64,000 bases of DNA. It comes from an uncultured Pseudomonadota bacterium. Lineage in GTDB: Bacteria; Babelota; Babeliae; Babelales; Vermiphilaceae. Position numbers and translations under genes: made by a program. The DNA is taken from contig CAZYJE010000006.1 of the NCBI GenBank assembly GCA_964647685.1, positions 25,624 to 89,623 on the forward strand, given 5' to 3'. The notes under the pieces are model-generated. The model saw only the letters and a program-made list of their open reading frames with translations. It was not told the origin of the DNA and did no database searches. Shown piece by piece: positions 22,288-37,459 of this stretch. Positions within the stretch are counted from its first letter, which is position 1; each line of letters starts with the position of its first letter.

Positions 22288-23664
22288 GTGGTAGAAACTA
22301 TTTGGAATCAATTTTTAACTATTGTAAAAGAAGAGGTTGGAAGTCGAGTTGTTGAAACTTGGTTTAAGGCTATTTCTTTATGCCAGTGGGATTCTATCAA
22401 TAACACTGTTTTTTTACAAGCACCCAATACTTTTGTTAAAAACTGGATTGAAAATAAATATAAAGATCTTATTAAAATACATTTAGGTCGACTTCTTCAT
22501 GTAAAAACTTTAAAAATAATATTTCTTGATAATAAAGCTGATAAACATCTCAAAAATTCTGATACTTTTGCAAATGTCGATTTTGTTCCTGCAGTTATTG
22601 ATAGAAAAAAAAATACAGTAACAACAGCAAATAAATTTAAAACATATGGGCCTATTAATAAAACTTATCAATTTGAAACATTTATTGTTGGGCCTAATAA
22701 TTCATTAGCTCGAGCTGCAGCAGAGGCTGTAACTGATAATCCAGGCAAGCTTTATAATCCACTTTTTATCTATGGTGATTCAGGTCTTGGAAAAACACAT
22801 TTGCTTCATGCAATTGGCAACTGTATACGTGCAAAACATAAAGATTTGACTGTTTTGTATCAAACTGCGGATCGATTTGTTAATGAATTTATTAGTGCAA
22901 TTCGATTTAATAAAATGCATAGATTCCAATCAAAATATAATAAAGTTGATGTTTTATTGATTGATGATATTCAATTTATTTCTAATAAAGAGCAAACACA
23001 AGAAGCTTTTTTTCATATTTTTAATACGCTTTATGATTCTCATAAACAAATTGTTTTTTCTAGTGATACTTTTCCTCAAAATATTAATGGTATTGCAGAT
23101 CGACTCAAATCAAGACTTGCTTGGGGGCTTGTTGCAGATATTTATGCTCCAAGTATAGAGATAAAAATTGCAATATTGAAAAAGAAGGCCGATGCTCATG
23201 GTATTAATTTAGATACAGTTATTGCAACATTTATCGCTTCTCGTATTAATTCTAATATTAGAGAGCTTGAAGGAGCTTTAATTAGGATTGTTGCCTTTGC
23301 TTCTTTAACGAAACAAGATATTACATTAGAACTTGCTCAAAAAGTTTTATTGCAATCACTTAATAGCAAAACTCAAATTGTTAATTTTAATAGAGTTGTC
23401 AAATGTATTTCTCGACATTATCCTTATGATTTAGAATCATTGCGTTCTAAAAAAAGAAATAAAAATTTATCTTTTTCTCGTCATCTTGCAATGTTTTTAA
23501 TGAAAGAAGTTACCAATAAATCGTTTAGAGATATTGGTAAATATTTGGGTGGAAGAGATCATTCTACAGTTATGCATGCAGTAAATAAAATAGAAAAATA
23601 TTTATTGAATAATCCAAGTTTTTCTGAGCAAGTACGTAAAATGAAAAAAGAAATTTATACTTAA
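22288..23664 (+). CDS. dnaA: chromosomal replication initiator DnaA
   Basis: 458 aa with a GTG start. It shows the N-terminal WNQFL..VKEEVG...ETWF, Walker A GDSGLGKTHLLHAIG, box VII and the C-terminal DNA-binding domain (GGRDHSTVMHAVNKIE). Confidence 0.95.
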   Translation: MVETIWNQFLTIVKEEVGSRVVETWFKAISLCQWDSINNTVFLQAPNTFVKNWIENKYKDLIKIHLGRLLHVKTLKIIFLDNKADKHLKNSDTFANVDFVPAVIDRKKNTVTTANKFKTYGPINKTYQFETFIVGPNNSLARAAAEAVTDNPGKLYNPLFIYGDSGLGKTHLLHAIGNCIRAKHKDLTVLYQTADRFVNEFISAIRFNKMHRFQSKYNKVDVLLIDDIQFISNKEQTQEAFFHIFNTLYDSHKQIVFSSDTFPQNINGIADRLKSRLAWGLVADIYAPSIEIKIAILKKKADAHGINLDTVIATFIASRINSNIRELEGALIRIVAFASLTKQDITLELAQKVLLQSLNSKTQIVNFNRVVKCISRHYPYDLESLRSKKRNKNLSFSRHLAMFLMKEVTNKSFRDIGKYLGGRDHSTVMHAVNKIEKYLLNNPSFSEQVRKMKKEIYT

Positions 23665-24707
23665 TAGTATAAGTGAAAATCAGATTTTTTTGTTTGTGCT
23701 GCTATTTGTTCTGATTTTGTTCTAAAAAATTGGTCATATGCACATTTTGACATTAAAGATAAGATCCAGTTAATATAGCCTGAAAAGGTTTGTTTTTCTT
23801 TAAATCCAACAAGAGATGGAAAATGTTCTGTGTCAACAATAACCATTTTGTCAGTATTTTTTTCTAAAATAAAATTATTAATATTCGGATCAATTGCCAT
23901 ATCTAAGTAATTACATAATTCCATACAAAACTTTCTATTTTTTCTATTAAAAATAGAAAGTTCTTTTTTTGATAGAATCTTATCTGTAATAATTGCATAT
24001 GTTCCTGGAATAACTGTTTCAATAGATTTTTTGTTGCCAATATTATTGCCTACAATTTTTATCCACCTATTATGTTTTTTATTATCAGGAAGCCAGAACC
24101 ATTTTCGTGGTGTATCAATTATTTTTGACCATTTTCTAGATTTTTTTATTTTTTGTACAATCATTTCTTTGTTTTTAATACGAGTAAATCCCATCAGATG
24201 TCTATTTATTCCGCCAGCCATATTAAAGAAAAATATAGGTTCAAAACCTTTTGTATAAGGCTTTGTAAAACTTTCAGGGTTTTCTATAAATAATTTTACT
24301 ATAAATGGATAATTTTTATATTCTAATACGAGCAGGCCATAACACTTTTTTTTATTAAAATTTTTTTTATGAATAATGTTAAAGTCTGTTAACTGTTTTT
24401 TGCCTAAAAAAAGTTCATTAATTGCTTTTTCTAAGATAGTGCTTAACTCTTTTCCTTCAATTGATTGTTTTGTATTATTGCGAAATGATATTTTAAAAGA
24501 CGGTAATAAATGTTTATTGAAATATGGTTTATTGAAGGTTTGAAAAATTGGATATTCTTCAAGGTGAGAATTGATAAGTCCATATTTTTTTTTTGAGTTA
24601 TTTATCCAGCATGTTGTTATTTTTGGTATTTTTTTGTCTGGTCTATGTGGACTTCTTGTATAAATAATACAAGAGTTTGTTAGTAGAAAAAGTAAAAATA
24701 ATAACAT
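23661..24707 (-). CDS. secreted hypothetical protein, possible protein-kinase-like fold
   Basis: 348 aa with a signal-like N-terminus. Candidate kinase-fold blocks are FIVKL (beta3 Lys), DPNINNFIL (D-x4-N catalytic loop) and IVDTEHF (metal-binding Asp). The CDS is credible; the fold call is speculative. Confidence 0.6.
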   Translation of the reverse strand: MLLFLLFLLTNSCIIYTRSPHRPDKKIPKITTCWINNSKKKYGLINSHLEEYPIFQTFNKPYFNKHLLPSFKISFRNNTKQSIEGKELSTILEKAINELFLGKKQLTDFNIIHKKNFNKKKCYGLLVLEYKNYPFIVKLFIENPESFTKPYTKGFEPIFFFNMAGGINRHLMGFTRIKNKEMIVQKIKKSRKWSKIIDTPRKWFWLPDNKKHNRWIKIVGNNIGNKKSIETVIPGTYAIITDKILSKKELSIFNRKNRKFCMELCNYLDMAIDPNINNFILEKNTDKMVIVDTEHFPSLVGFKEKQTFSGYINWILSLMSKCAYDQFFRTKSEQIAAQTKKSDFHLYY

Positions 24708-24887
24708 GTTTTTCGCAATTTTTATAAAAAATTAAGTTGCATTTTTAAACATCATAAACATATAAAAATGTATTATTACATGTCAAATCTTATTTGATTT
24801 TCAGAGCTGTTGATGTTCCTTATTAAGTTGAGTATGGTAATAAAAAAAGAGTTAAATAAATTAACATATTTTTAAAAAAGGATTGTA

Positions 24888-25415
24888 ATGAAAGGTGAAA
24901 ATTTAAACCGTCAACATGAGATACTTCATCATTTAAACTGTATTCCAAAAAAGATTTTATCGATACACGGAAGAGAAGACATAACAGAATTTGTTTTGAG
25001 AGAACTTTGCCATAAAAGCTGTTTTAATTTTAAAAAAGCAGCTTATTTTGTTCAAAATCCAGATTTTAATTGCTTAAAAGGAGTTGCAGGTTATTTTCAT
25101 AATGAAACACCAACTGTTTGTGATTTATTATGGGAGCATCCAGATAAATTTGTAGATAGACTGCATGGAGCAGATTTTAATACAAAAGTAAGAAAACTTA
25201 ACCAACAAGATTTGAAATTTAAAAACAATCAAGAAGAATGTTTACAAAATATTTCGGAGCAACTGTCAATTCAAAATCCTTCGCATCGTTTGGTAAAAAT
25301 GAAGCATGGAAACAACGGTATTTTGGTTTTTGAAAAAGAAAATAAAGATGAACCAATTATCACTGATTATCTTGACAATGGAATTTCTTTATTAGGATTT
25401 TGTCCTATTTATTAA
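24888..25415 (+). CDS. hypothetical cytoplasmic protein
   Basis: 175 aa with RBS AAAGGA upstream and no signal peptide. It may resemble a small-ligand-binding (GAF-like) fold, but I cannot support that. Confidence 0.5.
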   Translation: MKGENLNRQHEILHHLNCIPKKILSIHGREDITEFVLRELCHKSCFNFKKAAYFVQNPDFNCLKGVAGYFHNETPTVCDLLWEHPDKFVDRLHGADFNTKVRKLNQQDLKFKNNQEECLQNISEQLSIQNPSHRLVKMKHGNNGILVFEKENKDEPIITDYLDNGISLLGFCPIY

Positions 25416-26593
25416 AGAGTTTTTATTAATCCTATAAGTGGTTTTCCACTTAAATATGTTAATGTTGCTCCACCACCAGTTGAGCAATAATTAATTTTTT
25501 TATCAAGACAGAGCTTTTGAGCTACTGCTACTGAGTCTCCTCCAGCTACAATGCTAAATCCATTGGAGTTGCCCATTTCTTTTAATATGTTCTTCATGCC
25601 TTGCAGTGTTGCTATATTCTTTGTGTGTCCAATTGCACCGTTGAAAAACAATGTTTTTGCTTGTCTAATCAAAGGTTGTATTAACTTTTCTGTTTTTGGG
25701 CCAATTGAAACCCCAACACCATTTGATGGAAAATCTTCAGCTTGACTATAAGAAAGTGTCCCATCTAAATTATTTTCTGCTATTTGATAATCAACAGGAA
25801 AAACTATATTTATATTTTTTTCTTCTGCTAGCTTTAAGACTTTTTTACTTTCTTCTTGTAAATAATCATCTACTAAGGATTTACCAACCGGTTTTTTTAG
25901 TGCTTTTAAAAAAGTAAAACAGATTGCAGGGCATAAAATAACTGTTGTTACTTGATTCATTAAGTTTTTTATTAAAGGTAATTTATCTTTAATTTTTCCT
26001 CCACCTATAATCAGAACAAAAGGATTTTCTGCTTTTGTCAGTATTTTGTTAAGCATGTTAAATTCACGTTCAACAAGTAGTCCGACAGTTTTGTTTTCAC
26101 TCTTAAAAAGTTCAGGTACAAGTGTAATGGAAGTATCATCTCTATGAAGAAGTCCAAATGCATCATTAACATAGTAATCAGCAAGATTTGCAAGTTTTTT
26201 GGCAAAAGTTTTATTTTGATTTTGTTCCTCAGGGAAAAATCTTAAATTTTCTAAAAGAAGAATTTTTTTATTTTTAATAAAACTTTTTTGATATGCAGTT
26301 TCTAGATTTGGTTCAAACTCTATATTATAGTTATATTTTTCAAAAACAGTTGATATTTTCTTTGTAGAAAGATGTACTTCTTTTTGCTTTGGTCTACCAA
26401 TATGTGTTGCCAAAATAATTTTACCACCTTTTTGTAAAATTAAATTGATGGTTGGAAAAATTGCTTTTATACGATGCTCTGAAACAATATGATTATTTTC
26501 TATAGGTATGTTTAAATCAGCTCTAAGAAAAATTCTCTTGTCTTTTAGGTCCATTGTAGAAAGTTTAGATGATACGTCTATAATATTTTTCAT
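25412..26593 (-). CDS. pgk: phosphoglycerate kinase
   Basis: RIFLRADLNIP, ATHIGRP, GGGKIKDKL and STGGGATL motifs. ORF track extends to 26665, but the ATG at 26593 (MKNIIDVS...) sits 1 nt after the upstream stop and matches normal Pgk length. Confidence 0.92.
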   Translation of the reverse strand: MKNIIDVSSKLSTMDLKDKRIFLRADLNIPIENNHIVSEHRIKAIFPTINLILQKGGKIILATHIGRPKQKEVHLSTKKISTVFEKYNYNIEFEPNLETAYQKSFIKNKKILLLENLRFFPEEQNQNKTFAKKLANLADYYVNDAFGLLHRDDTSITLVPELFKSENKTVGLLVEREFNMLNKILTKAENPFVLIIGGGKIKDKLPLIKNLMNQVTTVILCPAICFTFLKALKKPVGKSLVDDYLQEESKKVLKLAEEKNINIVFPVDYQIAENNLDGTLSYSQAEDFPSNGVGVSIGPKTEKLIQPLIRQAKTLFFNGAIGHTKNIATLQGMKNILKEMGNSNGFSIVAGGDSVAVAQKLCLDKKINYCSTGGGATLTYLSGKPLIGLIKTL

Positions 26594-26594
26594 A

Positions 26595-27818
26595 TTATCT
26601 TTCAAATCGTAAAACATTAGAAATATTAATATTTTTTGTATTTTTAACCGAAAGCCATGTTGCAATAAAGCTTAATAGTAGAACAACTACAAATGTTATG
26701 ATTAAAATTTCGCTTGTCATTTTAACTGGTAAATAAGAAGCATAATAAGCGTCAGGAAGAGTTATAAAAGGGTAATTATCTAAAATATAAGCAGCAATAA
26801 TAGCAAATAGCAATCCAGATACTGTACTTACAAAAGAAATTATCATTCCTATTGATAAAAAAATATGTGAAATCATTTTATTTGTCATTCCCATTACTTT
26901 TAAAATAGCAATATCCTTACGTTTTTTTGTTATATACATAAATATAAGTGACATAATATTAGTGCTGGCAACAAGTGTTATAAGGCTCAGAAGTAAAAAC
27001 ATTGCATACTTTTCTAATTTTAATGATGAAATAATTGCAGGATACAAGTCTTTCCATGAATAAACATGCATATTAAATCGTTTTTCTAGTTGAGCAATTA
27101 CTTCTTCTGATTTTTTTTCGTCATGAAGCATAAGTGAAAGATGTGTTAACTGAGCATCTTCAAAAAGACTTTTTAAAAAAGAAAGAGAGCAAAAAGCCAT
27201 TGATGCATCAAACTCTTCTATACCCATTGTAAAGATCCCATTTATAAAAGCATCTTTTTGTTCTAATTTTATTTTTTTACTAGTTATCTCATCTTCTGGT
27301 GCAAATAAAAGTGTTATAGAGTCGTTTACTTCAAGGTCAAAATTTTGAGCTAATTTGCTACCAATCATAATTTCATTTTGTTGTAATAACTCAAAAAAAG
27401 ATGCTGTTTGATCATCACTTTTTATTTTCATATTCAGTTGATGATTTTTGTTATTTAAAAAATTAACTCCTTTTAAAATAATTGTTTCATAAGAGTCTTG
27501 CTTGGTAATAACAACCTGTTTTGTAGTGTAAGCATGGATTGATTTTATTTCAGGAAACTCTTTTTTTATTATTTTTTTTATTGTTGCAACATTAAGTGGA
27601 TCATTATTATGAGTGTGCATAGTAATATGACTATGCGCACCTCTGATTGTTTTGTATGTTACATGTTCAAATCCGTTCATTACACTTGCAATTAATGCAA
27701 GAGAAAATGCTCCTATACAAATGCCAAAAAAAGAAATTAGAAACATAGTTGTTATTGTTGGCTCTTTTTTTGTTCCTTTTAAAAAGCGCCAAGAAAGAAG
27801 AAGAGTTAGTTTATTCAT
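26595..27818 (-). CDS. lipoprotein-releasing ABC transporter permease, LolC/LolE family
   Basis: 407 aa. N-terminal SWRFLKG..., a large periplasmic loop, then a C-terminal FtsX-type 3-TM bundle (DIAILKVMGM). Confidence 0.85.
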   Translation of the reverse strand: MNKLTLLLSWRFLKGTKKEPTITTMFLISFFGICIGAFSLALIASVMNGFEHVTYKTIRGAHSHITMHTHNNDPLNVATIKKIIKKEFPEIKSIHAYTTKQVVITKQDSYETIILKGVNFLNNKNHQLNMKIKSDDQTASFFELLQQNEIMIGSKLAQNFDLEVNDSITLLFAPEDEITSKKIKLEQKDAFINGIFTMGIEEFDASMAFCSLSFLKSLFEDAQLTHLSLMLHDEKKSEEVIAQLEKRFNMHVYSWKDLYPAIISSLKLEKYAMFLLLSLITLVASTNIMSLIFMYITKKRKDIAILKVMGMTNKMISHIFLSIGMIISFVSTVSGLLFAIIAAYILDNYPFITLPDAYYASYLPVKMTSEILIITFVVVLLLSFIATWLSVKNTKNINISNVLRFER

Positions 27819-27896
27819 GTTGTTCCTTGTAAAATAATTATCTTTTTTTTAGGATACTAATATTATTTATATACTCTAGAATAAAGAGGTCTATTT

Positions 27897-28535
27897 ATGA
27901 AGCAAGTAATTTCTTTTTCTTTCCTAATGAGTTTTTTTCTAATTACTATTTCTGGCTGTGGAAGAGTTGTTGATTGGGCAAAATCTAATGTTAAACAAGG
28001 TTCAACAATAAAACATAAAAAATCTAATACCAAAAAATATATTAAAACATCTCGTATTTATGATCAATTTACTCTGTTGGGCTCATTTGATACGTTATGG
28101 CTTTCAGATGCAGTTCGCAAAGAGTATGTTGATTTGCATGCAGTTAAATTTGGAAAAACTCAAGAACAAAAAAATATTATACTGCGTAGACAGTTGGAAG
28201 AAAATAATCATTTTATTTCTTTTTATATATTAAGTGTTGCAGATATTTTATTAGGAGAAAAAGATTCTAAATGGTCTGTTATTCTTTCTATCAAAGATCA
28301 AACGTATACACCAATTGAGCTTAAAGTAGTTGAGCTTTCACCCGAATATCAACGAATATTTGATAAAAAAAATACAATATTTAAAACAGCGTATTTGGTT
28401 CGATTTAATGCCAAGGATATAGAAGATAAATTATTGTTACACAACTTTGTAAAAAAATTCTCTTTAATCTTTAGAACTTTAAAAAAAGAAATAAAACAAA
28501 CATGGAATAATTCTCATTTTATGGATAAAGTATGA
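27897..28535 (+). CDS. putative lipoprotein
   Basis: Signal peptide with lipobox (FFLITISGC). Orphan. Its stop overlaps the rpiB start (ATGA). Confidence 0.55.
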   Translation: MKQVISFSFLMSFFLITISGCGRVVDWAKSNVKQGSTIKHKKSNTKKYIKTSRIYDQFTLLGSFDTLWLSDAVRKEYVDLHAVKFGKTQEQKNIILRRQLEENNHFISFYILSVADILLGEKDSKWSVILSIKDQTYTPIELKVVELSPEYQRIFDKKNTIFKTAYLVRFNAKDIEDKLLLHNFVKKFSLIFRTLKKEIKQTWNNSHFMDKV

Positions 28536-28966
28536 AAATCGCTTTAGGCTCAGATCACCGTGGCTTTTTTTATAAAGAATTAATTAAAGGCTATAAAACG
28601 ATAAGTGACTTTTCAATTGATTGGATTGATGTTGGAACAAGCTCTAAAAGATCTTGTGATTATCCTGATTTTGCGCACAAAGTTTCTCAAAAAGTTCAAA
28701 GTAAAGAAGTTAAAAAAGGCATTTTGCTATGCGGTAGCGCTATAGGTATGGCAATTACAGCAAATCGATATAAAAATGTTTATGCTGGTCTAGTTTGGAA
28801 CAAGCAAGTCGCTGCGAAAGCAAAAGAACATGATAATATAAATATTTTAGTTTTGCCGTCAGATTATATAAAAAAAGATGAAATTTATGATATTATTGCT
28901 GCTTGGTTAACTACAGAGTTTAAAGGTGGTAAATATCAAACAAGATTAGAAAAAATTGATAACTAA
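28532..28966 (+). CDS. rpiB: ribose-5-phosphate isomerase B
   Basis: 144 aa; MKIALGSDHRGF and ILLCGSAIGMAITANR are RpiB/LacAB hallmarks. Confidence 0.9.
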   Translation: MKIALGSDHRGFFYKELIKGYKTISDFSIDWIDVGTSSKRSCDYPDFAHKVSQKVQSKEVKKGILLCGSAIGMAITANRYKNVYAGLVWNKQVAAKAKEHDNINILVLPSDYIKKDEIYDIIAAWLTTEFKGGKYQTRLEKIDN

Positions 28967-28968
28967 AG

Positions 28969-29005
28969 AAAAAGCGGCTGTATATTTTTATACAGCCGCT
29001 TTTTC
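28969..29005. terminator. bidirectional terminator
   Basis: A 12-bp perfect stem AGCGGCTGTATA-TTTT-TATACAGCCGCT flanked by A and T runs, between convergent genes. Confidence 0.7.
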
Positions 29006-29022
29006 TTTAGTTAATTAACTTG

Positions 29023-31536
29023 TTATTTAATTAATTTTTTAACTTTTTCAATAGAAAGAGTTTTATTTGTTAATAACTTATTTGCAACTTTCTCTATATT
29101 TTTTTTATTTTTTTCTAATAATTTAGTCACTTCTTTTTCACATTGACTGAGCAAGTCAAGAGCTTTTTTGAAGTACTCTTGCTGTATTGCTTTTGGCATA
29201 GATTTTACGTGTAAACCTTCAAAAACAAGTGATTTGATTATATCAAGAGCATCTTGTTTGTCATTAGTATTATAACTATGACCACTAGATCCTAATATAA
29301 TTTTTTCACTAATTGCTCCGGTAAGAATTATTTTAGCTTTATTTATTTTTTCTTCTCGAGAACTTAAATGTAAAGGGTCATGGTTGCATTTTGTAAATAT
29401 ACGACCATATCTGATATCTTTTTGTGTTCTTGGTCCATAATATTGTGCACTTGCAGATTCTTCTTTAAGTTCAGCATTATATGGTTCAATAGTCACAGAT
29501 GTAATATCAACTTTTGGCTGTAGTAAGATTGTTGCAATTAATCTACCAGCTTGATGAGCTGCGATTATTTTTTGTTCTGCAACTGGAATATTAGAACATT
29601 TGCCTGAAATAAGATCGTATGCTACTTCTAAAACACCTTGCTCTAAATGTTTTTGAGCTAAAGTTTCATTATTGAATTTTGCTTTTCTGAATGCTAAATC
29701 AACAATGCCTTCTAAATGTTTATAAGAGTAGTTGTGTGTTTTTGCAGTCAGTCCATCAATATCTATATAATCAAGATTTGGAAGAAGTGGTTGTAGTTTT
29801 TTAATAAAGAAATTTTTTCTTTCTTTATATGTTGGCATTTCAAAATGAATTGTTTTACCGAGTCTTCCTGGTCTTGTAAGCGCAGCATCAAGATTTTCTG
29901 GTTTATTAGTAGCTGCAATAACAATAACTTGACTGTTTGTTTTTGCGCTAAGAACACCACTTAATGATGACAAGAATGTACTAAGAAGTGTTGTATCACC
30001 ATCTGCACGCTGTAATTTAAGAAGATCAATTTCATCTATAAAAAGAACACATGGTGCTTCTTTTGCTGCAAGATTCATAATCATTTCAATCTGTTGTGAT
30101 GCAGTTTTACCATTTGAATCTTTGATCATGCTCGCATTAATTGAATAGAATCCAATTTCATCGGAGCTTCTACCAATTTGTTTAAATATTTTTTGAATTT
30201 CTCCACCCAAAGCTTCAGCGATAAATGATTTTCCTGTCCCAGGTTTTCCTGTAAACAAAAAACCACATTCAGGTTTAATACCAACTCTATCAAATCTTTC
30301 AGGATCTTTTATGTACTCAAGAACTTCAACTAGTTGAGCTTTAATATGGTCAAGGCCAACAACGTCATCAAAAGTTATTTTTGGAATAAGTTCTGTAGAT
30401 TCTTCATGTTGCTCTTTTACTTTTTTAGCTGCAACACCACCAAGTTGACGATCATACCACCAGTTAAAACGTTGACTCCACCAACAATAAAGATCTGAAG
30501 GCCATTCTTTTCCATAGATAAGAGTATAGCCACCAGCTAAAAATGCAGGTACATGCCAGTTTTTTTCTATTATAGAAAATATTCCAGAATTTAAACTATT
30601 AGTAGATCCTAAGATTTTTCTTAATTTACTTGTGTCTTCTTGAAATGACTTTAATATTTCTCCCCCAAAGAGGTTTTTAATGAAATTATTTTCTTCATAA
30701 TTGGTTGGGTTGTAACCATTATCAATAATTCGATAGATAAGTAATAGATTGTTATCATCAATATCTTTTACTCCCTTACTTGCAATAAAATTTTCACCTC
30801 TTTTGCTTGCTTCTGATTTTCCATAATCAGTAAATTTATAATACCAGGTTAATCCTACAAAACTGGTTACTGTTAAAGCTTTTAAGTATCTCCAAGTGTT
30901 AGATCTTCTTCCTGACTCATAATAATTATGAAACTTTCTGAATGCTTTATTCCATCTTGTAAGACCAATTTGTTGAGCTTCTTGATCAAGTTCTAAGCAA
31001 AGCATTTCATTATTAACAAGTTGTTTTTCGATTTGCTCTATAGATAATGCATCAACAGAAGAGTTTTTATCTTCCGTTAGTTTTGTATAGATGCTATCAA
31101 CATCTTTTAAATTATTGCCGATAGAAGTTTTAAGAGACTTTATTAAAGTTGTATTAAAGTTAGTTAAGAAATAAAGAGCTTGGATATCAGGATCAATAAA
31201 TGGATTTTTTCTAATATTGATAATAATTGTTCTAATAGCTTTCAGTTCTTTTAAAATTTTATGCTTATCGGCACCGGGAATTATATCATTTTTTGTAGCA
31301 AGAGATAGGTCTTCTATAATACTATCGATTTTTTTTAGTTGATTTAATGCTGCTTCAAGAAATTTACTAGTGACTTGCTTAAGGATCTTTTCAAAAGAAG
31401 CTTTTTCTTCGGCTGTTAGCTCTTTTTGAGTGGTTATAGCTGTATTTTTAACATTTTGCTCTGCAGAAATCTGTGTTATAATACTTAGCATTAAACAAGA
31501 AAAAAGCATTTTTTTCATTAAAGATGTCAGTTTCAT
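29023..31536 (-). CDS. FtsH-like AAA+ protein with extended N-terminal region and degenerate M41 zinc site
   Basis: 837 aa. Walker A GKPGTGKS lies near residue 430, Walker B is LFIDEIDLL, the SRH is ATNKPENLDAALTRPGRLGK, and the C-terminal domain is collinear with FtsH. However, HEAGH is replaced by HQAGR (29542-29556). Confidence 0.85.
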   Translation of the reverse strand: MKLTSLMKKMLFSCLMLSIITQISAEQNVKNTAITTQKELTAEEKASFEKILKQVTSKFLEAALNQLKKIDSIIEDLSLATKNDIIPGADKHKILKELKAIRTIIINIRKNPFIDPDIQALYFLTNFNTTLIKSLKTSIGNNLKDVDSIYTKLTEDKNSSVDALSIEQIEKQLVNNEMLCLELDQEAQQIGLTRWNKAFRKFHNYYESGRRSNTWRYLKALTVTSFVGLTWYYKFTDYGKSEASKRGENFIASKGVKDIDDNNLLLIYRIIDNGYNPTNYEENNFIKNLFGGEILKSFQEDTSKLRKILGSTNSLNSGIFSIIEKNWHVPAFLAGGYTLIYGKEWPSDLYCWWSQRFNWWYDRQLGGVAAKKVKEQHEESTELIPKITFDDVVGLDHIKAQLVEVLEYIKDPERFDRVGIKPECGFLFTGKPGTGKSFIAEALGGEIQKIFKQIGRSSDEIGFYSINASMIKDSNGKTASQQIEMIMNLAAKEAPCVLFIDEIDLLKLQRADGDTTLLSTFLSSLSGVLSAKTNSQVIVIAATNKPENLDAALTRPGRLGKTIHFEMPTYKERKNFFIKKLQPLLPNLDYIDIDGLTAKTHNYSYKHLEGIVDLAFRKAKFNNETLAQKHLEQGVLEVAYDLISGKCSNIPVAEQKIIAAHQAGRLIATILLQPKVDITSVTIEPYNAELKEESASAQYYGPRTQKDIRYGRIFTKCNHDPLHLSSREEKINKAKIILTGAISEKIILGSSGHSYNTNDKQDALDIIKSLVFEGLHVKSMPKAIQQEYFKKALDLLSQCEKEVTKLLEKNKKNIEKVANKLLTNKTLSIEKVKKLIK

Positions 31537-31654
31537 AAAAATAAAAAACCTTTCGACAATTTTTAGAAAGTAAATAAAAATTACATATAGTATTTAGTAT
31601 AGTCAGATAGCATTTTTTGTCGAATTTTAGCTAGTTTCATCTTGAAAGGGTTGT

Positions 31655-33124
31655 ATGAAAAGCAGCAAAAAAATAGTAAAAATAGTTGGTTTTTCAGTAG
31701 TTTTGATAAGTCTTGGTTTTATACTTCTAAAAAAAACAAATTATTCTATTTGTTCAAGGTTGGTTGTACCATCAAATCAAAAAGATTTTTTAAAGGTTGT
31801 ATCAGAAAAAGATAATATTGCCCCTCTTGTCATTATAGGTTCTGGGCCGGCGGGTCTTTCAGCTGCAATTTATGGTGCTCGGCAAAGTATCAAAACCTTA
31901 GTAATAGAAGGCAGTGAGCCTGGTGGGCAACTGATGCAAACATCATATGTAGAAAATTGGCCTGGAAAAACAAAGGCTTTAGGCTCAGAAATAATTGGAG
32001 ATATAAGGTCACAAGCAAAATCTTTGGGTGCAGAATTTTTGCAAGATACTGTAATGAATATAGATACCTCTTGTTATCCTTTTAAAATTATAACAGCAGA
32101 CAAAAAGCAGCTATATGCACTTTCTATTGTTTTGGCTACTGGTTCAACACCAAGAACATTGGGTATCGAGGGTGAAAAAAAATATTGGGGCAGTGGTGTA
32201 ACAACATGTGCAATTTGTGATGCACCATTTTTCAAAAATAAAGATGTTGTTGTAGTAGGAGGCGGTGATTCAGCTGTAGAAGAGGCTATTCAACTTGCTC
32301 CCTATGCAAAAAAAATATCAATTTTAGTTAGAAAAGATTCAATGCGTGCAGCTCCAACAATGCAAGATAGATTGAGTGGTTATCCAAATATATCAATAAA
32401 CTATAATACCGAGCTAAAAAAGATCATGGGAGATACAAACCATGTCAATAATATTGATATTTATAATAATAAAACTAAAGCAACTAAAAATATACCTATG
32501 GACGGTGTTTTTTTAGCAATTGGACATACGCCAAATACTCAATTATTAAAAGATGCTGTTGAAACTAATAGTAATGGTTATATAAAAGTTAAAGATCGAT
32601 CGCAAAAAACATCTATACCAGGTATTTTTGCAGCTGGTGATGTGGAAGATTTTCAATACCGCCAGGCTGGTGTAGCTTCTGCTAGCGGTATCAAAGCATC
32701 TCTTGATGTAGCAGAGTTTTTAACACATATTGGATTTGATGATTATGCTACAAAACAGTTAGAAGATACATTTTTTGTTCTTGATGGAACTCAAAAGAGT
32801 GCACAGCTAAAATCTGTTAGTAGCCTAGAAGAGCTTGATAAAATTGTAAAACAGTCAGAAAAGGCTATTATTCTTGATTTCTATACACAATATTGTCCAT
32901 CATGTTTACAAATGCTTCCTCATTTAGCGACTGTAGCACAAGAATATACAGATAAGGTCGTTGTATTTAAAGTTGATGCAGAAGAATCTTTTGATATAGT
33001 TGAAAGGTTCAATGTACACAAAGTTCCAACTATTATTGCTTTGAAAAACTCAAAAGAAATAGCTCGAGTAAAAAAAGCGATGAAAAAACAAGAAATACGA
33101 GCATTTATAGATAATCTTGCTTAA
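31655..33124 (+). CDS. trxB: thioredoxin reductase fused to a C-terminal thioredoxin domain, with N-terminal hydrophobic anchor
   Basis: GSGPAGLSAAIYGAR, redox CAIC (CAICDAPFF), GGGDSAVEEA and GIFAAGDV, then a linker and a Trx fold with CPSC (YTQYCPSCLQM...VPTIIALK). N-terminus: KIVKIVGFSVVLISLGFILL. Confidence 0.88.
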   Translation: MKSSKKIVKIVGFSVVLISLGFILLKKTNYSICSRLVVPSNQKDFLKVVSEKDNIAPLVIIGSGPAGLSAAIYGARQSIKTLVIEGSEPGGQLMQTSYVENWPGKTKALGSEIIGDIRSQAKSLGAEFLQDTVMNIDTSCYPFKIITADKKQLYALSIVLATGSTPRTLGIEGEKKYWGSGVTTCAICDAPFFKNKDVVVVGGGDSAVEEAIQLAPYAKKISILVRKDSMRAAPTMQDRLSGYPNISINYNTELKKIMGDTNHVNNIDIYNNKTKATKNIPMDGVFLAIGHTPNTQLLKDAVETNSNGYIKVKDRSQKTSIPGIFAAGDVEDFQYRQAGVASASGIKASLDVAEFLTHIGFDDYATKQLEDTFFVLDGTQKSAQLKSVSSLEELDKIVKQSEKAIILDFYTQYCPSCLQMLPHLATVAQEYTDKVVVFKVDAEESFDIVERFNVHKVPTIIALKNSKEIARVKKAMKKQEIRAFIDNLA

Positions 33125-33134
33125 TAATTAGTTT

Positions 33135-33186
33135 CTATTGTTTAAAAAAAGCCCTGACAAAAATCAGGGCTTTTTTTAAACAATAG
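33135..33186. terminator. bidirectional terminator (extended palindrome)
   Basis: CTATTGTTT-A7-GCCCTGA-CAAAAA-TCAGGGC-T7-AAACAATAG. Confidence 0.7.
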
Positions 33187-33195
33187 ACTTTTGCT

Positions 33196-35112
33196 TTATT
33201 CGATTTTATTTATAAGTAAGCTCAGCTTTTGTTTTATAGATCTTTTTTCTCTATTTTTTACATTTAATGTTAAAATTTTTTTCTTCAGGTTTTCTATAAA
33301 TGTTTTTAGTTTAGCTCTTAGGTTATATGTTTCTTCATATTGAAATTCTAAATCAGTAGCTAATTCTTCCATTATTGCATATAAAGCATCAATAGTTTTT
33401 AGATTTAAATTATTAAAGACAATATTAAAAGAATCAATAATTTTTGCGGTATGGTTTAAGTTTTCTTTGATTTCATAATCACTATACTCCTCATATAACA
33501 AGTTAATTTTTTTCAATATTAAAAGTAAGAAAGTATCATCTTCTTTATTTAAATGTGAAATAATATTATTTATTCTATCTAAAGAATCGATATTAATTTT
33601 TTCAATAGACTTGATAAAGATAGGTTTCATTTTTTCTTTTTTTATAGAGTATGAGTTTAAGATCCATTTTATTGTTTCTTGATAGCTTATATTTTGAGGT
33701 ATTTTATATTCTTTTATATAAGGTAATAAATTAAAAATATTTTCATTTGTTTTTTTAATTAAGATTTTATTTATTGTTTGCTTGTTTTCTCTTCTTTCTG
33801 AAAAAGCATGTTTAGGATTATTTTGAAAATAAAATTTATAACTTTGACTATCAATAATTACCTCTAATGCTTCAGTATCATTATCTATTTTTGAATGAAT
33901 AAATTTAAAAGGGCGATTTTTTTTTGATAAATACTTACCAAGTTCAGAAAAATTTTTTGCTGGTCTTTCTTTATGAATAAAAATATTATTAGATAAGTTT
34001 AAGAAATTTTTTGCTGTTGTATCAAGCCCATATTTTTTATCAACAAATTTTATGTTTTTAAATTCAGTAATAAATTTTGCAAAATCTAAACGAAATTTTT
34101 TCTTATATATATCTTCCATTTTTATATTTTTTATTAAATTTTTAAATGTTTCATCAAGAGATATATTGTCAGGTAAAAGATTAAGGTCATAATTTTTGGT
34201 TTTTGTGTTCCATAAAATAATATTTAAAGCAAAATCTAAAAATGTAGCTTCTGAGCAGTCAGTAATATTTATTTCTTTTAATAGAATACATTCTAGAGAG
34301 GGTGGTATAAGAAATTCATTTTGAACCACAAATAAAAATAATTCATAATTGTTTTTTATAAAGTTGGTAAGTCCTGAAGGACTCATGTTTTTTATTTCTT
34401 CAATACTTGCTTTTACTTGACTTAACTTAAAATTTGAATTTAAGTTTTCTCTATTTTTAGATAAGTTTTTTTTATTAATAGCATTTGTTATATTTTCACC
34501 TATTTTTTCAATAAAGTTTAACAATTCAAATTTTGTTTGTATTTTATAATTAGCAAAGGATAGTAATAGTTTAATTGTTTCTTGTGGGAGTGTTTTATAA
34601 GATTTATAAATCTTTATTAACAAATTTTTAAATTTTACTCTTGTTGTTTTTTTTGCTCTTTTTTTATTTCCAATTTCTTTTATATAATTATTTCTCCATT
34701 TTGTTATGAAATCTTCTACTTTTTTATTATCAGCTATTTTTTTGTCATCTAAAATTTTTATTATTTCTGTATTTAAAATGCCTATCATTTCTGCAATTAA
34801 ATTAGGGTTTAAAGCATAAGCAGGTAAGGATTTATTGTTTGTTGGCCTTGCTTGATTGTCTAATAAATAAAAAAGACCTTTTTCTTCTGCAAGTACCATT
34901 TTAAAAATGTTGTTTAAAATTTCTAGTTTAGGAGCTATTTCTTTAATTTTAAAAATATTTGTCGCAATTTTTGTAGTTTGAGCATTTCCAGGCCATAGAT
35001 ATTGATATTCTTTTTCGAATATAGATAAGGTTCCTTGAAAAATATTATTAATAGGTACTATTGGGTTAAAGTATGATGTTAATATTATTAATTTTATAAT
35101 GATTTTTTTCAT
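33196..35112 (-). CDS. large orphan secreted protein (Asn/Lys/Ile-rich)
   Basis: 638 aa with signal-like MKKIIIKLIILTSYF. No recognisable motif. Confidence 0.55.
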   Translation of the reverse strand: MKKIIIKLIILTSYFNPIVPINNIFQGTLSIFEKEYQYLWPGNAQTTKIATNIFKIKEIAPKLEILNNIFKMVLAEEKGLFYLLDNQARPTNNKSLPAYALNPNLIAEMIGILNTEIIKILDDKKIADNKKVEDFITKWRNNYIKEIGNKKRAKKTTRVKFKNLLIKIYKSYKTLPQETIKLLLSFANYKIQTKFELLNFIEKIGENITNAINKKNLSKNRENLNSNFKLSQVKASIEEIKNMSPSGLTNFIKNNYELFLFVVQNEFLIPPSLECILLKEINITDCSEATFLDFALNIILWNTKTKNYDLNLLPDNISLDETFKNLIKNIKMEDIYKKKFRLDFAKFITEFKNIKFVDKKYGLDTTAKNFLNLSNNIFIHKERPAKNFSELGKYLSKKNRPFKFIHSKIDNDTEALEVIIDSQSYKFYFQNNPKHAFSERRENKQTINKILIKKTNENIFNLLPYIKEYKIPQNISYQETIKWILNSYSIKKEKMKPIFIKSIEKINIDSLDRINNIISHLNKEDDTFLLLILKKINLLYEEYSDYEIKENLNHTAKIIDSFNIVFNNLNLKTIDALYAIMEELATDLEFQYEETYNLRAKLKTFIENLKKKILTLNVKNREKRSIKQKLSLLINKIE

Positions 35113-35382
35113 GTTCTGATCTTCCTTATATATTAAAAATTGTATACTTTTTTGACATGTTTATATGGTAGAAATTTTTTATATTACAAGAATAGAGTTT
35201 AACTTTAATTTTTATTTGGTTTTATCTATAGAGCTCATCTTTAGAGACTTTAAGAAATAAATACATCTAACTTGCCTTTATCGGCGCTTTTTATTTTTTT
35301 AAAATTGTTGCAATTTGTAATTTTTGCCTGATATTCTTAATAGTAAGTATAGGTTTAAAGGATAGTTACAGGCAAAAGGAAT

Positions 35383-36483
35383 ATGATGATACGAGTACAG
35401 CAATTTACAAAATGTAGAGTTTTTCTCACATTTTTTGTAGTGCTGCACTTTTTTTATTTTAATTCTAATGCAATGATTCCCATTTCTATTGGTGTCCATG
35501 GGGATATTGTTACTCGTGATTCTAGGGAGATTGAAGGGGCAATGGTAGAGCAAGTTATGCTTTATCCCAAAAAAAGTGCTCAATCTAAGGAACGGATTAT
35601 GCGTCGAGGTGTTCTTGTTAAGCGTAAAAATGCAAAAGGAACTGTTTTGATTAATCATGGATTTATGTGCGATAGAAAAGATTCAGCCTTTTTAAGAACA
35701 TTATTTCCAGAATATAATTGTATGACCTTTGATATGCGAGCTCATGGTGATTTTATAGAGGGACAATATAGTACCCTTGGTGGTGATGAAGCACTTGATG
35801 TAGAAGCTGCGGCTCAATTCTTAAGAAAACATCCAGATTTACAAAATAAACCACTTTTTGCTTATGGATTTTCTATGGGGGCTGTTGCTTCGATAGAGGC
35901 ACAGTCAAAAAATAGCTCTTTATTTGATGCAATGATACTTGATTGTCCATTTGATAAATCTGAAACAGTTATTAAACGTGGTCTTGAGCATATGAAAGTT
36001 TCATTCTTTGGTTATAAATTTAATATTCCAGGAAGATCTTTGTTGCAACGTTATGCTTTTCATCCTTATATTCAGTCATTTGTAAAACTTGTTCTAAAAA
36101 CAGTTGCCAATATGGGGACTCGTAATATAAAAACAAAGGCTTATCCTGTTTTTCCAGCAGAATCTATCAAGAAAATATCTGTACCATGTTTGTTTATTCA
36201 TTGTAAAAATGATGAAAAAGTTTCAGTTGCTGCGATAAAAAAAGTATTTAACAATGCTGGAAGTTCGTACAAAAAGCTATGGATTACAAATGGAAGATAC
36301 CATTATGATTCGATATTTTATAATCCAGAGCGCTACTCTCGGTACATAAATCGTTTTACCAATGCTTTTTTAAGTAATGAAATACATAACATAGTTAATA
36401 AAGAAGTTGTAGAAGATCAAGATGAAAATGTTGATATTGCAACACATATTAATAATGGAAAAATCGAAAGAAAAAGAAAATGA
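35383..36483 (+). CDS. alpha/beta-fold serine hydrolase
   Basis: Nucleophile elbow GFSMGA, oxyanion region LINHGF, and candidate Asp (HCKNDEKV) and His (GRYHYDS). Hydrophobic N-terminus. Confidence 0.75.
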   Translation: MMIRVQQFTKCRVFLTFFVVLHFFYFNSNAMIPISIGVHGDIVTRDSREIEGAMVEQVMLYPKKSAQSKERIMRRGVLVKRKNAKGTVLINHGFMCDRKDSAFLRTLFPEYNCMTFDMRAHGDFIEGQYSTLGGDEALDVEAAAQFLRKHPDLQNKPLFAYGFSMGAVASIEAQSKNSSLFDAMILDCPFDKSETVIKRGLEHMKVSFFGYKFNIPGRSLLQRYAFHPYIQSFVKLVLKTVANMGTRNIKTKAYPVFPAESIKKISVPCLFIHCKNDEKVSVAAIKKVFNNAGSSYKKLWITNGRYHYDSIFYNPERYSRYINRFTNAFLSNEIHNIVNKEVVEDQDENVDIATHINNGKIERKRK

Positions 36484-36671
36484 AGACTATTTTTATAATG
36501 CTTTTTATTTTTGTAATTATTATTTGTGCTCGTAGATCAAAAAAAAAGGATAAAAATCCGCTTGTTTTTAAAGAATTTTTTAAAGATACCTTACGCGGTC
36601 TTTTTATTGTTGCTGTAGGTATAGCTATTTTATTAATTGGATCTTTCATTTTTCAAAAGTTTATAAAGTAA
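36480..36671 (+). CDS. small membrane protein
   Basis: 63 aa with two hydrophobic segments separated by RRSKKKDKNP. Its start overlaps the upstream stop (ATGA). Confidence 0.45.
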   Translation: MKTIFIMLFIFVIIICARRSKKKDKNPLVFKEFFKDTLRGLFIVAVGIAILLIGSFIFQKFIK

Positions 36672-36683
36672 ATGAGGTTGAAA

Positions 36684-37370
36684 ATGAAGAAAATAAGATA
36701 TGTTGCTCGTATAATTATGTATGTTAGTTTTTTTTGTGCAGGTCTTGGACTACTTATAGATCTTTCTGCACGACACTCGACAGCTTATTCAGAAGATCGT
36801 TTTTTTGATTTGCTTCGTAAATATGAACTGTCTGTTGTTCTTTTTTATTATCAAGATTATCAATCGAAAAAAAATAAAGATGAGAAAAAAGATATTGCAG
36901 ATCTGCTGAAAGATTTTAAATCTGCAAGTAAAATTAGAAGCTTTAAAAAAGCTGATATTTTATTTATGCCTGTTAATCTTGCAAGAGAAAAAGTTGAAAA
37001 CTTAGCTAATCAATATGGAATTTCAAAGAAAAAAATTATTGTTAAAGAAGAATCATTAATGATTCATAGACCAACTATAATGTTGTTTAAAGATGGCAAA
37101 CCTTTCAATAATATTCGTATAACAGGTGATTTATCAAAATCTCGAATAAAAAAATATGTAAATCAATATTTTAGAGAATTTATTGATGAAATTCTTAAAC
37201 AAAAAGAAGAAGATAGAAAAAAAAGATTAGAAGAATCTCGTTATAGATCGTATCACTATACACCATACTATTATGGTTATGGTTGGGGCTGGCCCTATTA
37301 TCGAAGTTATTATTGGCCATATTATGGTTATGGTCGTCACTGGGGCTGGGGGCATCATTATTGGTGGTAA
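36684..37370 (+). CDS. membrane-anchored thioredoxin-fold-like protein (no CXXC) with Tyr/Gly/Trp-rich C-terminal tail
   Basis: ORF track 36672..37370; the ATG at 36684 lies 5 nt after GAGG. It has a TM anchor, and VVLFYYQDY...PTIMLFKDGKP is a Trx-like pattern lacking the cysteines. The last 42 aa are YRSYHYTPYYYGYGWGWPYYRSYYWPYYGYGRHWGWGHHYWW. Confidence 0.55.
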   Translation: MKKIRYVARIIMYVSFFCAGLGLLIDLSARHSTAYSEDRFFDLLRKYELSVVLFYYQDYQSKKNKDEKKDIADLLKDFKSASKIRSFKKADILFMPVNLAREKVENLANQYGISKKKIIVKEESLMIHRPTIMLFKDGKPFNNIRITGDLSKSRIKKYVNQYFREFIDEILKQKEEDRKKRLEESRYRSYHYTPYYYGYGWGWPYYRSYYWPYYGYGRHWGWGHHYWW

Positions 37371-37459
37371 ATCAAGGTTACATTCCCAGTAAAATTCTTT
37401 TATGATATCCTTTTTAAGACATTAAAGTTCTTTTAAACATCTTAAAAAGGATATCTTTT

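Follow-up and report, generated by a model that had tools for sequence, protein, structure and literature searches.

What does an FtsH-type protein do when its protease site is gone? The question is raised by a gene in a 64,000-nucleotide stretch of DNA (the window, with a G+C content of ~29%) from an uncultured bacterium of the Babelota, family Vermiphilaceae (assembly GCA_964647685.1, contig CAZYJE010000006.1, positions 25,624 to 89,623). The gene is an unbroken open reading frame (ORF) on the reverse strand (29023..31536, -; all positions within it refer to this strand) and lies in a genome of 0.90 Mb that is 96.6% complete. Its 837-residue product (P0001) is here called pseudo-FtsH. An earlier reading of the window, made from the sequence only, had taken this product for an FtsH-like AAA+ protein with a dead metalloprotease site. 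According to our analysis, pseudo-FtsH is very probably a non-proteolytic, ATPase-competent FtsH paralogue. It is a member of a monophyletic, undescribed family of the Dependentiae (Babeliales), which is kept beside canonical FtsH in most genomes. Since both pore loops and the inter-subunit DGF motif are altered, a role in threading polypeptides is doubtful for this ATPase-competent pseudoprotease.

The FtsH fold is recognisable in the C-terminal part of the protein. Pfam AAA (PF00004) matches residues 427-566 (E 2.4e-25) and, together with Foldseek, identifies a classic-clade AAA+ module at residues 386-640 (29617..30381). A full-length AlphaFold2 model, for which 60 family sequences served as input, has a mean predicted local distance difference test score (pLDDT) of 83 and a predicted template-modelling score (pTM) of 0.77, and supports an FtsH fold for residues ~380-837. 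Its best Foldseek matches in the PDB, over ~470 columns, are FtsH 3KDS (target-normalised template-modelling score 0.79), YME1, AFG3L2 and the Ycf2-FtsHi chains. The order of the domains, AAA+ module and then M41 fold, is that of canonical FtsH of the M41 family (E. coli FtsH/HflB, T. maritima 2CE7/3KDS). The M41-like pseudoprotease domain occupies residues 645-837 (29026..29604) and is recovered by AlphaFold2, Foldseek, phmmer and a sub-threshold Pfam match. The collinearity with the FtsH M41 domain that had been noticed earlier is thus borne out by the model and by Foldseek (template-modelling scores up to 0.79), whereas at the sequence level the Peptidase_M41 profile (PF01434) reaches 23.1 bits against a cut-off of 29.9. 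Pseudo-FtsH also falls below the cut-offs of the FtsH equivalog models, with 154.5 against 600 bits for TIGR01241 (NCBIfam) and 106.5 against 1008 bits for NF008004. The Pfam search did not detect FtsH_ext (PF06480) in the protein.

The ATPase module is intact, as the sequence-only reading had it. Walker A (GKPGTGKS, residues 430-437, 30226..30249) has a lysine that is kept in 215 of the 216 distinct family members on which all motif counts are based. Walker B (LFIDEIDLL, residues 498-506, 30019..30045) contains Glu502, present in all 216, and is followed by LxLQR and a shortened pore-2 loop. The second region of homology (SRH, residues 541-560, 29857..29916) includes ATNKPENLDAALTRPGRLGK and comprises the RPGR motif, the sensor-1 residue N544 (210/216) and the arginine R558 (216/216). 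The four hallmarks of the classic-clade ATPases of FtsH, namely Walker A, Walker B, sensor-1 and the SRH arginine, are therefore all present and are conserved in at least 210 of the 216 sequences. Two details of the family differ from the protein of the window. The P-loop consensus is GPTRTGK[ST], in which Thr-Arg replaces the Pro-Gly of FtsH, and the first SRH arginine, R555 in pseudo-FtsH, is replaced by Gln in 142/216 members, where the preceding position is an Arg. With its GKPGTGKS and TRPGR, pseudo-FtsH itself is more canonical.

The protease site presents a different picture. At the HEAGH position pseudo-FtsH reads HQAGR (residues 661-665, 29542..29556), and so lacks the catalytic Glu as well as the second zinc-binding His; three independent alignments agree on this earlier observation. 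MAFFT places HQAGR on HEAGH in alignments with the FtsH of the same genome and with that of Haemophilus, phmmer sets 'aahqagr' opposite 'AYHEAGH' of T. maritima FtsH (3KDS), and in the phmmer alignment with the AFG3L2 chain of 6NYY the motif stands opposite AYHQAGH. The third zinc ligand of FtsH, an Asp, corresponds in the alignments to D759 (29260..29262) and is kept in 145/216 relatives. Among the zinc-binding and catalytic residues of M41, only the first His and D759 are left. A displaced catalytic motif was also considered and is ruled out, as the 837 residues contain neither HExxH nor HxxEH.

This loss is a trait of the family. The second position of HEXXH is Gln in 96 members, Phe in 55, Leu in 29, Met in 10 and Glu in only 2, while the first His is kept in 182/216 and the second in 93/216 (lost in 123). 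As the Glu is absent from 214 of the 216 relatives, neither a sequencing error nor a strain-specific lesion can account for its absence in pseudo-FtsH. The near-invariance of the Walker, sensor and Arg558 residues, set against the variability of HEXXH, argues that the ATPase site is under strong constraint and the protease site is not. With canonical FtsH, pseudo-FtsH shares Walker A and B, sensor-1, the Arg finger, the first zinc His and the Asp of the third ligand.

The commonest motif of the family, HQAGH (39/216), is identical to that of AAA proteases engineered from Glu to Gln, such as the AFG3L2 chain of 6NYY. Such HEXXH mutants keep the fold, the zinc site and the ATPase activity but do not cleave. 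They also retain their pore loops and still translocate, whereas pseudo-FtsH has lost the second His (HQAGR) and the canonical pore loops in addition.

The family and its origin

A canonical FtsH of 608 residues with an intact HEAGH is encoded on contig 23 of the same genome, a different contig from that of pseudo-FtsH. The possibility that pseudo-FtsH is the only FtsH of its genome, with intact sites in its relatives, had been named as one that would overturn the pseudoprotease assignment; the canonical copy and the general loss of the Glu dispose of it. Canonical FtsH of the sampled Dependentiae is uniform: 13 of 13 have HE[AGS]GH and two strong transmembrane helices.

A word-indexed search returned 13 close relatives, after which scores fall to generic AAA proteins. 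An exhaustive profile search raised the family to no fewer than 150 clusters (50% identity) that score more than 580 bits over the full length. Sixty-odd loci lie in species-representative genomes, nearly all labelled Dependentiae/Babeliales, and the record titles of the relatives read Candidatus Dependentiae, Babeliales, Babelota or TM6. When 151 genomes from across the phylum were searched with profiles, a family member was scored in ~115 (E < 1e-65 and a match to the end of the pseudoprotease domain, judged by eye) and a canonical-type match in all. The phylogenetic spread, which the sequence-only reading had left to be established for the HQAGR variant, is phylum-wide for the family. Within the GTDB family to which the window belongs, 54 of 55 genomes have a member, and members appear absent from seven other families. 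The pseudo-FtsH family is mostly single copy, with two or more copies in a few genomes. Tandem duplicates occur in two genomes (L010, 3406-5805 and 5896-8268; L035, 696-3086 and 4933-7488), and several other genomes contain 3-6 FtsH-like matches in total.

A number of records with other titles belong here as well. L025, L008 and many others, titled Alteromonas naphthalenivorans, Candidatus Hydrogenedentota or uncultured Pseudomonadota, carry a Dependentiae-type gene among Dependentiae-type neighbours (e.g. rpiB and, in the longer loci, most of the synteny block described below). These are probably mislabelled or mis-binned metagenome-assembled genomes. In the cultured strain Noda2021, the orthologue (BDC34495.1) is annotated as 'hypothetical protein'.

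A maximum-likelihood tree of the AAA and M41 region, which sampled only bacterial FtsH, recovers the family as monophyletic (100/100), with a stem that measures ~2.2 substitutions per site. Canonical FtsH from Dependentiae make up a separate clade (100/100), in which the family is not nested, and terminal branches of the family are 2-3 times longer than those of canonical FtsH. The tree is compatible with an ancient duplication and with a transfer, and the two cannot be told apart. The origin of this family, in a bacterial phylum, is presumably independent of that of the plastid FtsHi proteins. The changes in HEXXH differ. FtsHi proteins often lose the first His, as in TEVGV, NEAAM and WAAGR (PMC11266112), whereas the Dependentiae family mostly keeps it and replaces the Glu by Gln, Phe or Leu.

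The family can be defined by a set of features: the leader, a helical N-domain ending in GLxWxNKxxR, a short pore-1 loop, DEIDLLxLQR, GRFGK, a residue other than Glu at HEXXH position 2, and a place between trxB-trx and rpiB. Pseudo-FtsH has all of them except the short pore-1 loop, which in this protein is of full length and polar. Selection for function is indicated by its intact ORFs, its mostly single copy and its fixed place in the synteny.

Plastids, with FtsHi/Ycf2, are so far the only described source of FtsH pseudoproteases, and a 2024 review of metallopeptidase pseudoenzymes names no bacterial M41 case (PMC11266112). In the searchable literature, we found no mention of FtsH in the genome papers on Dependentiae, TM6 or Babela and no description of the family. 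Pseudo-FtsH is best described as an FtsH-derived pseudoprotease.

Pore loops and membrane topology

In FtsH, the stretch between strand β2 and helix α2 carries the pore-1 motif MFVG (aromatic-hydrophobic-Gly) and measures 17 residues in the canonical protein. In the family it is reduced to 10 residues in 182/216 members and to 10-12 in 206/216; the loop is shortened in ~94% of members, by 7 residues, and its conserved aromatic is lost. An aromatic precedes the conserved loop Gly in 47/216 members only. In pseudo-FtsH, the corresponding position (residues 468-478, ASMIKDSNGKT, 30103..30135) is polar and lacks the motif. Its core reads KDSNGK, and the loop owes its full length to an insertion, SNGKTASQQ, which is present in few relatives. 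The pore-2 loop after Walker B is ~8 residues shorter in the family, with the nearly invariant LxLQR in its place, and the inter-subunit signalling motif MDGF has become MSGx, so that DGF is lost. On the evidence of these alignments, the parts of the AAA+ ring that grip and thread a polypeptide (pore-1 aromatic loop, pore-2 loop and DGF) are dismantled. Relative to canonical FtsH, pseudo-FtsH has therefore parted with the pore-1 aromatic and DGF as well as with the catalytic Glu and the second His, and its pore-2 loop is shortened.

These losses bear directly on the comparison with the import motor of the plastid inner envelope, built from FtsHi1-5 and Ycf2 (Orf2971). Its FtsHi/Ycf2 components are likewise FtsH paralogues that stand beside active FtsH, with a degenerate HEXXH and an intact ATPase; they share with pseudo-FtsH enlarged non-cytoplasmic or N-terminal modules and a structural similarity that places Ycf2-FtsHi chains among the Foldseek matches. 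The likeness to FtsHi drawn in the sequence-only reading is apt in this sense, as that of a proteolytically dead FtsH derivative with its ATPase motifs intact. Pseudo-FtsH could then be a bacterial analogue of this motor, i.e. an unfoldase, extraction or pulling machine which passes membrane proteins or translocating proteins through the pore of its ring without degrading them. The same evolutionary event, the large extracytoplasmic module and the ~22% of members with an aromatic beside the loop Gly would all fit. However, in the Orf2971/Ycf2-FtsHi motor of plastids, which presumably threads preproteins, the central pore still has its conserved loop aromatic (bioRxiv 10.1101/2024.09.02.610899), whereas this residue is missing from pseudo-FtsH, whose loop is polar, and the loop is short in nearly all relatives. 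Furthermore, the pore-2 loop is short, the DGF motif that couples the nucleotide state to the pore loops is lost, and the conserved neighbourhood of the gene contains no translocon genes. We consider such a threading motor unlikely. The dedicated membrane unfoldase or translocation motor proposed earlier meets the same objections, to which the weakness of its hydrophobic segments has to be added.

The N-terminal half is, as had been noted, far longer than usual: Walker A begins at residue 430 in pseudo-FtsH, as against 208 in the genome's canonical copy. It opens with a signal-peptide-like segment, recognised already in the sequence-only reading (residues 1-25, 31462..31536), in which MKLTSLMKK is the basic n-region, 12 uncharged residues form the h-region and QISA/EQ is the c-region. 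Essentially all members have this leader, with 2 K/R, an uncharged h-region of median 15 residues and often an AxA-like end; for comparison, TM1, the first transmembrane helix of canonical Dependentiae FtsH, measures ~19 residues. The charges that flank the leader point to an N-in orientation.

Residues 38-212 (30901..31425) form a family-specific helical N-domain of ~175 residues. AlphaFold2 models it as a six-helix bundle both alone (pLDDT 91, pTM 0.83) and within the full-length protein. The ~190-residue coiled region reported earlier is accordingly helical, but it is modelled as a compact bundle. A Foldseek search of the PDB gave no significant match for this domain (best E 0.5, template-modelling score <0.35), and a Pfam scan over 50 members gave scattered noise and no consistent match. 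Its end carries the best-conserved motif of the N-terminal half, GLTRWNKAFR in pseudo-FtsH (residues 191-200, 30937..30966; family consensus GLxWxNKxxR), in which L192, N196 and R200 are each conserved in at least 90% of members. This motif directly precedes the first weakly hydrophobic helix.

This helix, TM-A (residues 214-235, 30832..30897), is rich in Gly, Ala, Ser and Thr, closes with an aromatic belt WYY and is a candidate transmembrane helix, weak in pseudo-FtsH and strong in some relatives. A variable linker follows (residues 236-328, 30553..30831), which ranges from 41 to 172 residues over the family; pLDDT is below 50 at residues 274-332. The next element (residues 329-365, 30442..30552) comprises seg-B, VPAFLAGGYTLIY, whose hydrophobic stretch covers residues 329-341, then a Trp-rich, basic amphipathic helix, SDLYCWWSQRFNWWYDRQL, and then LGG. 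The Kyte-Doolittle maximum over 17 residues is 0.73 for TM-A and 0.76 for seg-B in pseudo-FtsH (family medians ~1.3 and ~1.2), against 2.2-2.8 for the transmembrane helices of canonical FtsH. The two hydrophobic segments of the earlier reading thus exist, at 214-235 and 329-341, but they are only weakly hydrophobic.

The architecture can be compared with that of canonical FtsH, which has two strong transmembrane helices around a periplasmic FtsH_ext domain (PF06480) of ~70-90 residues. Both proteins share an N-terminal hydrophobic leader and a hydrophobic element at the place of TM2, the second transmembrane helix, ~84 residues before Walker A; the distance from the end of seg-B to Walker A is 82-96 residues in the family and 73-83 residues from TM2 in canonical FtsH. 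In pseudo-FtsH, however, the periplasmic α/β domain is replaced by the 175-residue bundle, the linker (41-172 residues in the family) is an addition, and the membrane segments are weak. For TM-A and seg-B, the three measures applied (Kyte-Doolittle hydropathy, a simple Hessa-scale sum and positive-inside counts) disagree. An FtsH-like topology would be the most economical arrangement: a leader or TM1 would be followed by the bundle in the periplasm, by a single helix across the membrane and by the ATPase in the cytoplasm. It agrees with the charges around seg-B, which are more basic on the C-terminal side.

A putative mechanism

How could such a protein work? We regard a non-threading switch or scaffold with a cytoplasmic ATPase as the likeliest reading, with chances that are about even. 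An FtsH-like ring, suggested by the fold, would lie at the cytoplasmic face of the inner membrane and expose the helical bundles on the periplasmic side. Binding and hydrolysis of ATP would then serve as a conformational switch and not as a threading motor. Movements of the ring might be passed on through the membrane-proximal helices to the extracytoplasmic domain, a mechanotransmission as in FtsEX/MacB-type machines. Alternatively, ATP might gate the binding of partners to the dead protease chamber, which would make the protein a scaffold or holdase. Substrates would be neither degraded nor processively unfolded.

Several observations count against this proposal. The mechanism is deduced from losses, and the formation of a ring is assumed from the fold. 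A Tyr or Phe before the loop Gly in about a fifth of the family may provide a rudimentary pore contact, and the pore-1 loop of pseudo-FtsH, though polar, has its full length. Two proteins may retain an active metal site, P0234 (HEAGH plus Asp) and P0185 (HEIAH). As for the topology, the simple Hessa-scale sum is +7.9 kcal/mol for TM-A and +11.4 kcal/mol for seg-B in pseudo-FtsH, compared with -3.5 to +1.9 kcal/mol for canonical FtsH transmembrane helices, so that neither segment is predicted to insert; it exceeds 1.5 kcal/mol for both segments in 56 of 60 members. Lastly, if the leader, TM-A and seg-B all spanned the membrane, the ATPase would be placed outside the cytoplasm.

P0234 and P0185 are metagenome proteins and the sole two of the 216 with a HEXXH Glu. 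Both have the leader and a short pore-1 loop. The short loop beside an intact Glu indicates that the loss of the pore loop and the loss of the protease site are separable.

The last point on topology leads to a different view of the whole molecule, in which the AAA+ and pseudoprotease body lies outside the cytoplasm. The leader would be a cleaved Sec signal peptide, the protein would be periplasmic, or would be secreted and held by TM-A and seg-B in a membrane that faces the host, and host ATP would be its fuel. The presence of the leader in essentially all members, with its short h-region and AxA-like ends, agrees with export, as do segments far weaker than FtsH transmembrane helices and the trans-side position that the C-terminal body would take if these segments and the leader all spanned. 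The family also evolves 2-3 times faster than canonical FtsH, and in ATP-importing parasites host ATP crosses the envelope anyway. On the other hand, TM1 of FtsH is itself an N-in signal anchor, so that a leader is expected as an ancestral remnant; the more basic flank behind seg-B fits a cytoplasmic ATPase; and a mostly single-copy gene, fixed among housekeeping genes (rpiB, pgk, lolC/E-like, trxB), is unlike typical effectors. We know of no proven periplasmic AAA+ ATPase, which also counts against export.

A parallel for secretion exists within the phylum. Babela massiliensis has fusions of an AAA ATPase with a permuted Ulp1 peptidase, several with inactivated peptidases; an atypical signal peptide is predicted for them and they were proposed to be secreted (PMC4378268). 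They share with pseudo-FtsH the phylum and the combination of AAA ATPase, inactivated peptidase domain and a predicted or signal-peptide-like leader. However, their peptidase is a C48 cysteine peptidase and not M41, and they are Babela-specific with 9 copies, whereas the pseudo-FtsH family is phylum-wide and mostly single copy. On balance, we hold an exported body to be quite improbable. If true, pseudo-FtsH would be the first AAA+ machine to work outside the cytoplasm of a bacterium, at the interface of parasite and host.

Pseudo-FtsH might also act through canonical FtsH, as a regulatory or structural partner in hetero-hexamers (like FtsHi with FtsH12, or the m-AAA subunits) or as an adaptor, with its periplasmic domain as a sensor. 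A canonical FtsH, one per genome, accompanies the family wherever it occurs, the cores (AAA and M41-like) that form the ring interfaces of FtsH are still recognisable, and pseudoenzymes that regulate their active cousins are known (PMC11266112). But the stem of ~2.2 substitutions per site is long, motifs for ring coupling such as DGF are lost and the membrane anchors are completely different. Moreover, the two genes are unlinked and lie on separate contigs, and in about a quarter of Dependentiae genomes FtsH occurs unaccompanied by pseudo-FtsH. Such a partnership is hardly probable. Finally, a decaying, functionless relic of a duplicated ftsH, which the lost catalytic, pore-loop and transmembrane features and the fast evolution might suggest, is effectively refuted by the pattern of conservation: ORFs of ~800-1000 residues are intact in ~115 of 151 reduced genomes (0.8-1.9 Mb), the ATPase residues are invariant, GLxWxNKxxR, LxLQR and GRFGK are conserved, and both domains are confidently modelled.

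Pseudo-FtsH is probably a core envelope component of a phylum of obligate intracellular parasites with reduced genomes. As an ATPase-competent FtsH derivative with neither a protease site nor threading loops, it is a natural experiment on an AAA+ ring without the pore mechanism. The family also offers a new, presumably extracytoplasmic helical domain without structural relative, natural 'trap-like' HQXXH sites and a testable topology, and Babela, Vermiphilus, Chromulinavorax and Noda2021 are cultured hosts in which tests could be made.

Gene neighbourhood

The pseudo-FtsH gene is monocistronic and forms its own transcription unit. An rpiB-like gene (28532-28966, +) is convergent with it, and a TrxB-Trx fusion gene (31655-33124, +) is divergent from it across a spacer of 118 bp. 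Within this spacer, a promoter-like site TCGACA-16-TATACT (31596..31623, -) matches the consensus at 10 of 12 positions ~60 nucleotides upstream of the ATG; promoter-like sites are no more numerous in the spacer than in shuffled sequence, and the site is to be read as a consensus match only.

Around the gene, and likewise at loci L003-L060, a block of ~10 genes is kept in order and orientation in most of 58 loci, although protein identity is only 25-45%. In the window, the block extends over ~23600-39000 and reads w37460, unk232, alpha/beta hydrolase, trxB-trx, pseudo-FtsH, rpiB, lipoprotein, lolC/E-like permease, pgk, unk175 and unk348. Among the 58 loci, 45 have trxB-trx next to the pseudo-FtsH gene; rpiB occurs in 50, and so does the lolC/E-like gene. 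The block consists of several oppositely oriented transcription units of unrelated housekeeping genes, which speaks for general synteny, and we therefore set aside any deduction of function from the neighbourhood or an operon. The fixed place in a conserved block indicates a stable core gene and not a functional operon.

Three neighbours deserve mention on their own account. In the TrxB-Trx protein, a Pyr_redox_2 part is fused to thioredoxin behind an N-terminal hydrophobic anchor; the genome thereby has a further enzyme, cytoplasmic in the usual case, whose N-terminus is leader-like. Between trxB-trx and the hydrolase lies a 638-residue orphan (33196-35112, -) with a leader-like N-terminus and no Pfam match. 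The flanks of the 58 related loci yielded no homologue of it, which suggests that it was inserted into the conserved block in one lineage. On the other side, a predicted lipoprotein of 212 residues (27897-28535, +) has a lipobox-like LITISGC and no Pfam family. The stop of its gene overlaps the start of rpiB by 4 nucleotides, and the two genes adjoin in 41 of the 58 loci.

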